DNA from: Chara braunii
Lineage: Eukaryota; Plantae; Charophyceae
NCBI GenBank assembly: GCA_003427395.1
Contig: BFEA01000023.1
Span: 3,250,798-3,314,797 of the forward strand
DNA length: 64,000 bases
Direction of reading: 5' to 3'
Positions 7,964-12,041 of the stretch are shown here, in pieces. The position numbers were made by a program, and so were the translations under genes. Numbering within the stretch: position 1 is the stretch's first letter; each line of letters opens with the position of its first letter. The notes under the pieces were generated by a model. The model had not been told where the DNA came from. It worked only from the letters and a program-made list of their open reading frames with translations, and did not search any database.

Positions 7964-10874
7964 CTACCTGTCCCCAATTAAAACCGAAATTATGCGCCAA
8001 GCCGCGCTCTTATCCCTGCTGAAATTCCGCAATGCTTTCCCGAACCATGAACCGGGATAGTTACACTTCCTCAGTTCGGATCTGAACAGGATCACTGTTT
8101 CGAGTAACCCCACTCCCATACCCGAATTCTGATTAATACGATGCAGGGTACTGATGATAACTGCCATCTTGGCTTTCTTACTCGACCATGACCGGAAATC
8201 CTGGAGGCAACGAAAAGGTAAGTTACCCCCCTCCCTCAATTCCTTCTCATTCTTCAAAACTTGCATTGTGCTCAGAAAGGGATACTTATCGCCAATGGTC
8301 AGTCTGCACCCCAAGAAAATCCAACTCTCCTTCCCCTCGTCAGTTCTTTTGAGGATAAGTGCTCGATCATAACAGCCTTCAAAGAGAGTCATGATTTTCA
8401 AAGCCTTAGCCTTATCCCCGACTTTCTCAGGATTATACGTTGCGAACACTTACACGTCATCTGCAAACCTCATCCCGCAAAAGGCCCGCCTCTGACTACC
8501 AAAAGAAATTAAAAAATCCCATTCACTCTTTGCACACATAAGACAAGCGAGGGGAGAACTCGAACTCTTTCCCATGGGAATACCAATGATCTGTTGCAGG
8601 AGAAACCCGCAAGCCCTGGTGAAACAGAATTCGAGCTCGAACTTCACAAATTTGACAATGTAACTGAATGACACGAATAAAAACCCGTCCAATTGCCGAC
8701 TCTTACTCAAACACGCCTCTTTCCCTCTTTTATGAACAAAAATACCGTTGTACCCCTTCTCAGAAAACCACCACACTACCCATTCAATTGCTGCGATGAT
8801 CGTTTCATGCGGGAGGCGACTAAACATGTCTTTAATATCAAATGACGCTCCCACAACCTTCACCACTTTCCTACTCTTCGCCAACGTTTTGTCCATGCGT
8901 TCCAGCCTATCCTTCATCTGGGAAACCGATTTAAGATTGAAGTGCCCTGATTCCGGTAATGCATACAACAAGCCATTGATCCCCTTTGACACGACCTTGC
9001 ACGCCTTCGTCGAGGGTTCTTCAAAGGTCGGGCAAATGGGACGGAATTTCCCCGTGTCCTTGTGCTTGGGCAATGCGTATGCCCCCCCGATTTTACCGTT
9101 TGAGTTCCACTTCCCAAGGTCGTGTAACCCCCTCCCTTCGTACTCCCTTTTCGCCAGAGTTAGCAATTGTTCCTCGTTCTCCATACACACCCGATAGCCA
9201 TCACTCAATAGAAAGGTTTCCTCCATTCCCTTCTTGTATAGCCTAGGACAAAGAACCAGGGTTTCCCCAAGATTACGGTCCAGGGGGACCCGGACCAGCC
9301 CTCTCAAGCGCTCTTTCAGATCCAAAATGTCCTTCATACCATCACAACACCTATCATCCCTTCCTGAAACCAAACAACCACGCACATCTTCCAGAGTACA
9401 CTTCAGCAATGTTTCAGACACTCCCATGTTGCTTCCCCACGTACCCAATGCCTCATTCAATTCCTTACCAAGCAAAACGTCCCTATGCTCGACATCATGC
9501 CTTGGTACGTTCTTTGCATTCTTCGCAATCGCCGGGACGCCATCAAGTTCTCCTATCCGGAAATGCACGTGTCCATCCTTCTTAGGGTAGGGCAAACCAA
9601 CACAAGAGCAGTTGCATGCACGATTCGATGCAAACTGTCGATGGTTGTGTAAAATTTCACCCACGTTAGGGCCTTTCTTCCACACTACCCGTGCACGACG
9701 CTTTACCATCTCCTTCAACGGAGTAACCAAGTCCAGGCTACCTACCTTCCTCCTCACCACCCTCATCACTTCGCCCTTTCTGATCCTCTCATCAAACTGA
9801 ATTTTGACTATGATCCTAGTACGTACGTTATATCCAAACTTTTCCCGTATCACCCTTGATACCATACAACGAGCTTTAGACCGACTCCGTTTTTCCGTAA
9901 AAGTTTTCACAGCACTGTAGTACGTGACTAATTCCCCCAAAGTCTTTGCATAGAGAATCTTCCTCTTCCGCTGATCTTTGAACATTTTAGCCATCTCATC
10001 TTTTAACGCAAGCAAGGTCGGAGAGGCTTCGAAAACTCTACGAATTACTACACAGCCCTCCCGCTCGAAGAGTCCCTTGCATTTTCGAAGAGGTTTCGTG
10101 CCCCGTCTGACTTTCACGCGCATCTCACCAAACAACCGCCTCACTAACTTCCAACCATCCGCCCAGATACTTCCCCCAGCATACCTTCAAATCCCCCTTC
10201 CTTCGCTTGTGATTGCGTGAGAACTCTACTATCTTAACCGTAGCATTCCCCTGTCCCTTAAGCTTGACCGTCAACAACTTCCCCGTATCAATCTCAAAAT
10301 CCCTGGTCCTTCTCCCCTCTCCGCTAGACCACTTCCGCCGTTCTTTCTTACCTGGCCGATGCCTAGATTTCTTTGTACATTTCCTTGTTTTGACTGATCG
10401 CACATTCAGGGACGGAGACCAATTTTTGATTAACGCAGATTCGACAGCTTCTAATTCAGCACGGTCAGGACTGGTGAAAACTGGCAGAGCAACATACTTG
10501 TGCGCGCCCACTTTCCCGAGCCAATTATACAGAGTCATGCCCCTTTTGCCCAATCTATGTCCCTGACAGTAGTGTTCGCGCTATCTCGCCCACAGGCCGC
10601 GCTCGGTCATGCCAACATACACCTGCTTATACCATGGAGAAACCAAGATATACACACAGTTACTCGGGGTCGAGATATCAAACGTTCCCTTTTCCACTTC
10701 ATCCCTCCAGTAGTTTACATACTTCTCGCCCCATCTAACGTCTCCAAGCAATATATGTCCTAACGTAGCAGCCCGAAACTTCCTTTCATCATCTTTGCAC
10801 TTACCATTCTTTAATAGTCTTCGTTCACTTAGAAGTTCAGCCCAAGCTCGGAAGTCGTCGCAACGACAAACGCC
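7964..10874 (-). pseudogene. PLE-1 ORF2: GIY-YIG endonuclease + reverse transcriptase (one frameshift, two nonsense codons)
   Basis: CVYILVSPWYKQVYVGMTER..R*REH..E..LN; LDRN, YALPKHKD, FRPI, FDIKDMF, QIIGIPMGKSSSSPLA, RFADD, FLG. Confidence 0.9.
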
Positions 10875-12041
10875 TCACTCGAAATCATCCTCAGAAAAGG
10901 ATTCCTCCGATTCCGAGAGTGAAGGTTTCGTTTCGTCCTTGATAACCACTCCTTTACTGGCCCTGGTAATAAACGGCAACGGGATGGTAGATGGGTCATA
11001 TGCCACAACAGACCTTCTAGTGATCAATCGCTTGATAGCCAAATCTCTGTTTCCATACGCTACCTTCTCCCTCCGGCAGGCTTCCTTCAATTCGTCAATG
11101 GTCAGGGCGTCATAGAAATCATGGCAGTCCTGTTCAAATTTCTCCTTACCTCCTGGACCACATGAAGCCATGATGTGCTTCAATGACAAGTCAATCTTCT
11201 TCGGCGTACTCGTCGTCCCGCCCTCCTTCAGCTGCTCGCTATTCAGCACTTCAATTCTTGTTTTCGCCTCCTCCCAGAGTCAGGTATTCGACCTCTTCTC
11301 GGGGGTGACGATCGGTGGACTATTCCCAACAGGTAAGTCGGGGCCACGCTTCCTTTTTTCCAACAATTCCAACCTCGCCGCTTGCTTGCGTAGGGCAAGC
11401 AGCTCTTCGTCCTCTGCTTCTTCCATCCCGAAAGTTCGTTGCGTGATGCTTCTCCGCAACCGCTCTTTTTCTTCATTAATTGCCTCCGTTCTTTCGATCG
11501 CACGCACCTGTTTCTTTCCTTTGTCTGCGCTTCCCACGCCCTCCCTTTGAAATTCGCTTCGCAAAATCCTCATTAGTCTAACATCGCGTTCCTCTTCGTG
11601 CCTTATCCTCTGTTCCTCTCTTAACGCCCTCCTGGTTTCCTTCGCCCGTCTCGCCTCGTCCTCCACTCTTCTTCGCTCCTCTTCCCTTTCACGTTCGATC
11701 CTCTCACGTCGTTCCTCAACCATCTGCATGAAGTACTCTCTCAGAAGCGCGTTCGTCTCCTCCGTACAATCCCCACGTTCATTACGATCCCCGCCACTTT
11801 CAGCCGAGCGGCTCCTCCGGAACCCGAAGCTGTCGCTGCCCGACGTTGATCATCCATACCGTGTTTGCCCAGTGGAAATAACCGATGGAGCGAATGGTCT
11901 CCCCTGTGCCTTTGCCCTCTAATAGTCCGCGCAATCACGGATGTAGTGACCACCCTCACCGCACTTATAACACTTCCCGCCATCTGGCGGCATCCCGCCA
12001 CCACCCTCAGTCCCCTTCCGAGAATCACCTTCCTCACTCAT
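10875..12041 (-). pseudogene. PLE-1 ORF1 (~388 codons): CCHC zinc knuckle, coiled coil, SAP-like motif, acidic tail; 3 internal nonsense codons
   Basis: ORF-track pieces 12158-11919, 11729-11280 and 11249-10875 share one frame; CYKCGEGGHYIRDC, E/R-rich coil, LTIDELKEACRREKV..RDLAIKRL. Confidence 0.8.

Follow-up and report, generated by a model that had tools for sequence, protein, structure and literature searches.

A family-conserved UGA between ORF1 and an AUG-less endonuclease–reverse transcriptase frame in Penelope-like elements of Chara braunii

Penelope-like elements (PLEs) are the closest mobile relatives of telomerase reverse transcriptase (RT). The elements themselves, their two open reading frames (ORFs), frameshifting at ORF1 of other PLEs and in-frame-stop junctions in elements with long terminal repeats (LTRs) are known already. 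A zinc-knuckle ORF1 followed by an ORF for a GIY-YIG endonuclease (EN) and RT has been published for Chlamys-2_cBra as well as Chlamys-5_cBra (Craig et al. 2021, PMC8557442; this and the other papers cited by PMC number are represented here by their accessible parts). In the present work, a stretch of 64,000 nucleotides of Chara braunii (contig BFEA01000023.1, positions 3,250,798 to 3,314,797; referred to as the window) was analyzed. It contains three PLE copies, PLE-1, PLE-2 and PLE-3, all of which are decayed and dead. It was found that a TGA separates ORF1 from the nuclease frame in each copy, and that no AUG precedes the nuclease in PLE-1 and PLE-2. The junction is real, conserved in the family and so far unremarked; how the stop may be passed is weighed below.

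In PLE-1, ORF1 ended in SEDDFE-TGA (10877-75), and the same frame stayed open for 72 codons to CVYILVSPW, with the first Met at codon 89, past the YIG motif. PLE-2 was likewise open for 72 codons from its TGA (17813-11) to the nuclease, again with the first Met at codon 89. The stop, the frame and the missing AUG were read directly from the DNA, and both junctions were as described in the original prediction, which had been made from the letters of the window and had proposed UGA suppression. The ORF1 frame of PLE-2, which that prediction did not show, was confirmed after removing a large insertion and discounting one ACGA copy, which left 1161 bases (387 codons) in frame to the TGA. For PLE-3, the proposal that the frame beyond the TGA (5514-16) rejoins the GIY frame at a run of nine G was upheld by gene model P0058, which aligned in the ORF1 frame across the TGA to 5582 and in the GIY frame from 5578, the switch falling at the G9 run 5579-87. 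TGA was thus present in all three copies as claimed; the acidic tail that was said always to precede it was missing in PLE-3, whose ORF1 ends in TTGNN. Because of the decay of the copies, and because TGA also makes up 6 of the 11 internal stops specific to single copies of PLE-1 and PLE-2, the three TGAs alone are weak evidence.

The search for ORF1 relatives gave 41 matches, all C. braunii gene models, 30 of which reached the last conserved motif. Twenty-one of these 30 ended in the acidic tail, 42–50 residues past that motif (42 in PLE-1). Five of the other nine terminated earlier, two had frame-shifted tails, and two continued via gene models that skip the junction; in-frame run-through was seen in 0 of 41. 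The frame-shifted tail of P0003 back-translated to S-E-NGA-G-V-C, that is, a junction codon N-G-A followed by G-V-C. The back-translated tail of P0021 fitted the PLE-1 junction by eye, but it had no score in the computed comparison and is weak. Chimeric gene models, with ORF1 and nuclease in one chain, were also inspected (27, hand-picked from 63 profile-search matches). The junction was skipped at scattered points in 25 of them (two judged by eye), and only P0051 and P0058 ran through, the former with Trp precisely where the stop would be, the latter with Glu, and both with the tail adjoining the first helix of the region that follows. These comparisons indicate that the junction stop is a feature of the family and not decay, and its predicted fixation was borne out by the common end of the 21 relatives. 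The genomic contigs of a single study, which may represent the source sample, showed a local depth peak at 10860-93 (139 vs 61 and 67 in adjoining bins for X1; 120 vs 76 and 92 for X4), no difference at 10875-77 among the 40 of 367 differences listed, and no indel between stop and nuclease among the 12 of 15 indels listed; they agree with a fixed stop but are incomplete. A junction-centered protein search returned no match, and scans of metagenomes and viruses returned no related locus. Although the acidic tail varies by indels, S-E or S-D stands right before the stop in many ORF1 C-termini (P0001–P0052), a hint that the final codons or residues may be constrained.

Conservation of the codons that immediately follow the stop was directly observed. 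Over 70 codons, PLE-1 and PLE-2 shared 43% amino acid identity with an uncorrected pN/pS of 0.70; identity at the three codon positions was 0.57/0.61/0.39, and the other frames held 4–9 stops. W48, located 25 codons ahead of the nuclease, was kept in 32 of 33 aligned rows, and K51 in 29 of 33. Since this alignment is misaligned in its first ∼20 columns, the comparison of the W helix rests on a separate one: a Trp lies 9–11 codons past the stop in PLE-1, PLE-2, PLE-3, P0051, P0058, P0073, P0089, P0098 and P0075, and the spacer from stop to Trp is 9 or 11 whole codons in frame-0 junctions. For the PLE-1 stretch, which carries the W helix and a G-x3-W-x2-K motif, AlphaFold2 predicted helices at 4–21, 27–42 and 47–62 ahead of the GIY-YIG strands, with a mean pLDDT of 91.5; in a fold search with this model GIY-YIG domains ranked best, none at E≤0.001. 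Protein-level selection on the AUG-less stretch is supported by these comparisons and by the model. Because the stretch is conserved, Met-free and predicted to fold, the ORF2 protein must start at or before the first few post-stop codons, upstream of any in-frame AUG, and a non-standard route to ORF2 is therefore needed. A standard AUG start was rejected, as there is no Met ahead of YIG in PLE-1 and PLE-2 and the stretch before it is conserved. In PLE-1, neither an in-frame AUG nor a near-cognate start was found from −10 to +20 codons around the stop.

Among 30 relatives looked up by sequence, 23 were from C. braunii and 7 were JGI/ENA records (P0066, P0093, P0097, P0087, P0088, P0091 and P0099). 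The latter are related to the nuclease and several share the pre-nuclease helical region, which suggests that relatives exist outside the C. braunii genome. One C. braunii gene model, P0073, opens with Met in precisely the position that follows the stop, 76 codons ahead of the nuclease.

The published Chlamys consensus junctions were translated by eye, and errors in the consensus sequences are possible. In Chlamys-5_cBra, ORF1 ends in EEDSN-TGA and ORF2 follows in frame, with 76 Met-free codons to GVY. UGA was present at 5 of 6 junctions read at the DNA level, and 4 of the 5 with a readable frame were in frame 0 (PLE-1, PLE-2, PLE-3 and Chlamys-5_cBra). A single in-frame, family-fixed stop between the ORFs, by which programmed readthrough of the MuLV, TMV or alphavirus type is recognized, was thus found, with Chlamys-2_cBra as the exception. 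AUGs overlapping the stop (ATGA, TGATG) were noticed in PLE-2 (17814-12) and in the Chlamys-2 and Chlamys-5 consensus sequences, where they open frames of 8–22 codons other than that of ORF2.

Low-level bypass of the stop, yielding an ORF1-EN-RT fusion by UGA readthrough in the frame-0 families and by a +1 shift in Chlamys-2, is the leading mechanism suggested by these sequences; it is unproven, and we put its probability at roughly one half. In active elements, a few percent of ribosomes would pass the family-conserved UGA, giving abundant ORF1 protein and a rare fusion. Both ORFs would lie on one RNA from the pseudo-LTR, in the in-frame families the UGA would be decoded by a near-cognate tRNA, in the Chlamys-2 lineage a +1 shift close to the stop would serve the same end, and the purpose may be a gag:pol-like ratio. 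Swapping of junction type among related retroelements is common in LTR elements. More tentatively, and with somewhat less than even confidence, the whole Chara PLE clade may have independently evolved gag-pol-style programmed UGA readthrough, with a +1 shift in one lineage, that joins a zinc-knuckle/SAP-like ORF1 to EN-RT, without a known leaky context or 3′ structure and possibly driven by the acidic nascent tail. The predicted UGA suppression with abundant ORF1 and a rarer fusion gains from the family-fixed stop and the selected AUG-less stretch, and loses from the lack of a readthrough signal or selenocysteine insertion sequence (SECIS) and from the Chlamys-2 and Chlamys-3 exceptions.

Several observations weigh against stop bypass by readthrough. 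In Chlamys-2_cBra, ORF1 ends in DPSDD-TGA and the Met-free ORF2 lies in +1, overlapping ORF1 by ∼10 codons; the ORF1 frame past the TGA closes after 13 codons. ORF1 of Chlamys-3_cBra ends in TAG, in a consensus flagged as frameshifted. Because of these two families, the notion that the junction is always UGA and always in frame is false, and the frame, whose variation among families the original prediction had named as speaking against it, does vary in part, being +1 in Chlamys-2_cBra and 0 at the four other junctions with a readable frame. Chance values were modest (p ∼0.05 for 4/5 in frame; p 0.02–0.16 for 5/6 UGA), and the families are related, not independent. An ancestor with a single ORF could have handed frame 0 down, and gene models that read through favor frame 0. 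A second in-frame stop (TAG) follows three codons past the TGA in PLE-3, besides its non-acidic ORF1 end, and P0073 begins with its Met right behind the stop position. The base 3′ of UGA was G, A, C, U and U across the junctions, with C only in PLE-3, so that no leaky context is common to the families; neither UGA-C nor CARYYA was shared by them. Regions 3′ of or across the stop folded no better than shuffles (z −0.3 to +1.1 in five tests of pseudoknot-free folds), and two folds upstream of the stop gave z of −0.8 and −0.7. The 5-bp hairpin behind the PLE-1 stop had no counterpart at PLE-2 or PLE-3, and a conserved 3′ RNA structure was rejected on these grounds. Finally, Tca2, which has the same layout, showed no readthrough from local sequence (accessible parts of PMC2194720); therefore, an in-frame UGA need not mean simple readthrough.

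Alternatively, ribosomes may terminate at the UGA and a few of them restart without an AUG, no more than a few codons away, which would yield a separate EN-RT protein. One mechanism would then cover both the frame-0 and the +1-overlap junctions, and only a few codons separate the stop from the predicted folded part of ORF2. For reinitiation on CASQ2, an Asp-rich C-terminus has been reported as necessary, a precedent for the acidic tail; caliciviral reinitiation accepts codons other than AUG, and termination-reinitiation is used by L1 and SART1 (PMC5972666, accessible parts). The Met of P0073 at +1 and the stop-overlapping AUGs of PLE-2, Chlamys-2 and Chlamys-5 might be read in the same sense, although the latter are out of frame with ORF2. 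However, near-cognate codons are absent from PLE-1 between −10 and +20, the UGGGA motif was not found in the 100 nt upstream of the stop in PLE-1 or PLE-3, natural sites usually retain an AUG, and frame 0 recurs beyond what such a mechanism needs. Reinitiation is therefore considered possible, though on the unlikely side.

It is improbable that the stop, or ORF1 as a whole, is spliced out with an intron or that ORF2 is supplied by a separate shorter RNA. PLEs do retain introns, with alternative 5′ introns in Chlamys-3_cRei (PMC8557442, accessible parts), Tca2 has a minor junction promoter (PMC2194720, likewise), and a donor-like GA|GUGAGG overlaps the PLE-1 stop. Nevertheless, an intron beginning at the stop would remove the conserved first helix, and the AGs near the stop are poor acceptors: between −40 and +36 nt, PLE-1 has AG only as GAG, and PLE-2 has it as GAG or AAG, with a single TAG past the Trp codon, in a tract rich in purines and poor in U. 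The 25 junction-skipping gene models skip at scattered positions, and a shorter RNA would still lack an AUG ahead of the nuclease. Over 10350-11350, two RNA runs yielded 0 and 5 reads, and none of these fell on the junction.

Selenocysteine at the UGA, as in some Naiad PLEs, was rejected as very improbable in spite of that precedent and of the complete selenocysteine machinery reported in Charophyceae (PMC6627142, accessible parts): the UGA sits within an acidic linker instead of replacing a conserved Cys, the run-through models have Trp or Glu, the +1 and TAG junctions would be left unexplained, and the SECIS check of the decayed 3′ regions of PLE-1 and PLE-2 gave no Rfam match and a lone loose pattern match without a SECIS fold. 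Mere decay of one long ORF (CGA or TGG to TGA), with which the many TGA decay stops in PLE-1 and PLE-2 and the uninterrupted P0051 and P0058 would fit, is largely refuted and scarcely credible, since the end point is shared by 21 of 30 relatives, run-through occurs in only 2 of 27 chimeric models and TGA is present in the published Chlamys-2 and Chlamys-5 consensus sequences.

The coordinates of the three elements are collected in Table 1. They are identified as Chlamys-type PLEs from their pseudo-LTRs, zf-CCHC, N-terminal GIY-YIG, CxC and RT match. ORF1 of PLE-1 has the order zf-CCHC, charged (likely coiled-coil) middle, SAP-like motif and acidic tail, with three copy-specific stops; the coiled-coil label is weak, as it was assigned by eye, and so is the SAP-like one, which stems from a Pfam match in PLE-3 only and from source names of homologues. 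Matches to PF01541 (GIY-YIG) ahead of the RT region had E of 0.007 and 0.0005, both below cut-off. The PLE-1 endonuclease has its first in-frame ATG at 10610-08 and one decay TAG at 10583, and its ORF2 carries a copy-specific frameshift near 10190 and a decay TAA at 8452. The CxC motif between EN and RT, following the NH motif, is CSC in PLE-1 and CIC in PLE-2 (by eye against alignment rows of PMC8557442). With 48% identity in ORF1 and 51–54% in ORF2, PLE-1 and PLE-2 are related. No canonical hammerhead was matched by Rfam at E≤10 in 7000-8100 or 14300-15000, nor was a convincing core found by pattern; PLE-1 and PLE-2 are therefore treated as probably functioning like the Chlamys-2/-5_cBra subtype, which has a 3′ hammerhead, and are not assigned to it.

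Table 1. Positions of the PLE features in the window
Feature	Position	Strand	Details
PLE-1 5′ pseudo-LTR	12188..12912	-	726-bp direct repeat, 95% identity to 7125-7850
PLE-1 ORF1	10878..12041	-	388 codons; zf-CCHC (PF00098 E=2.7e-5, above cut-off); 37 homologues named as C. braunii
PLE-1 junction TGA	10875..10877	-	homologous ORF1 end in 21/30 relatives
PLE-1 hairpin, 5 bp, 4-nt loop	10854..10867	-	7 nt 3′ of stop; weak
PLE-1 pre-nuclease stretch	10659..10874	-	72 Met-free codons; predicted three-helix domain
PLE-1 GIY-YIG endonuclease	10404..10658	-	Pfam match below cut-off; GIY-YIG structures top-ranked, best E 0.07
PLE-1 ORF2 remainder (linker, CxC motif, RT, thumb)	7964..10186	-	sequence comparison
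PLE-1 3′ pseudo-LTR	7125..7850	-	no Rfam hammerhead or SECIS match
PLE-2 5′ pseudo-LTR	23859..24345	-	487 bp, 95% identity to 14348-14834
PLE-2 ORF1, 5′ part	22577..23699	-	48% identity to PLE-1 ORF1
TG..CA insertion in PLE-2 ORF1 tail	17856..22576	.	4721 bp; 4-bp target duplication ACGA
PLE-2 ORF1 acidic tail and junction TGA (17813-11)	17811..17855	-	sequence read
PLE-2 ORF2	14898..17810	-	970 codons; no AUG ahead of YIG; 3 decay TGAs
PLE-2 3′ pseudo-LTR	14348..14834	-	repeat comparison
PLE-3 ORF1 remnant and junction TGA (5514-16)	5190..5516	+	SAP weak, E=0.03
PLE-3 ORF2 remnant	5517..6291	+	in-frame TAG at codon +3; frame change at G9 run 5579-87

The insertion in PLE-2 is likely LTR-derived or nested; its 21541-22580 end has an 84–88% identical copy at 47495-48438 as well as short tandem units. 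Another fragment of a related ORF2 lies at 25245-25415 (minus strand). Elsewhere in the window, a type III hammerhead ribozyme was found at 215-269 (minus strand; 48.7 bits, above the Rfam cut-off), ∼200 bases from a stretch near 445-490 that we take to resemble 28S ribosomal RNA near the R2 target region, and the two may possibly mark the end of a PLE-X-type element. A fragment like the 3′ half of U6 small nuclear RNA lies at 4366-4417 (minus strand; E=0.011, below cut-off). Long inverted arms at 49475-49996 and 53092-53613, ∼3.1 kb apart and 81–91% complementary, possibly belong to a DNA transposon.

Programmed UGA readthrough, if true, would make these the first Penelope-like elements with stop-codon readthrough. 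UGA readthrough without a signal and reinitiation without AUG would each be an additional recoding system, from a streptophyte alga near the land plants, and the junctions would form a natural series (frame 0, +1, UAG and sense codon) in which to dissect the mechanism. The junction also accounts for many mis-annotated Chara gene models, which jump it with predicted introns. As to novelty, neither readthrough nor an AUG-less ORF2 was found described for PLEs in the literature searched, most subscription papers being beyond reach, and in the accessible text and supplement of Craig et al. (PMC8557442) the word 'readthrough' is absent and the stop, the frame and the missing AUG are not discussed. 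The suggestion that UGA suppression had not been described for PLEs holds to this extent, and is narrowed by the published two-ORF layout and by the ORF1 frameshift drawn for other PLE clades.

Compared with known systems, as the accessible parts of the cited papers describe them, the junctions resemble Naiad selenoprotein PLEs in having an in-frame UGA in a PLE with an N-terminal endonuclease (PMC8557442); Naiad UGAs, however, replace a conserved Cys and are accompanied by SECIS, neither of which holds for PLE-1, PLE-2 and PLE-3. L1 and SART1 (PMC5972666) are likewise retroelements whose bicistronic RNA encodes an RNA-binding protein in ORF1 and EN-RT in ORF2, but they keep an ORF2 AUG near the stop, whereas none is in frame here (P0073 being the lone exception). 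One in-frame stop between structural and enzymatic ORFs is common to Tca2 of Candida albicans (gag-UGA-pol), MuLV (gag-UAG-pol) and SIRE1 (PMC2194720), and in Tca2 it is likewise a UGA, bypassed by an unknown route; these are retroviruses or LTR elements that have a purine spacer and a pseudoknot, neither of which was found in the three copies. In Athena-type EN-minus PLEs (PMC8557442, Figure 1 legend), a structural ORF1 is also linked to the RT ORF by recoding, there by a frameshift with a pseudoknot and no endonuclease; the present elements carry an endonuclease and an in-frame UGA, and no structure was found in them. Chlamys-2_cBra as well as Chlamys-5_cBra (PMC8557442) differ in sequence family, in the canonical hammerhead that was not found in PLE-1 and PLE-2 and, for Chlamys-2, in the +1 frame. 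They share with the present elements the upstream zf-CCHC ORF1, N-terminal GIY-YIG, CxC and RT, and the Chlamys-5 consensus has, by eye, the same arrangement of ORF1, TGA and ORF2 in one frame with no Met ahead of the nuclease.

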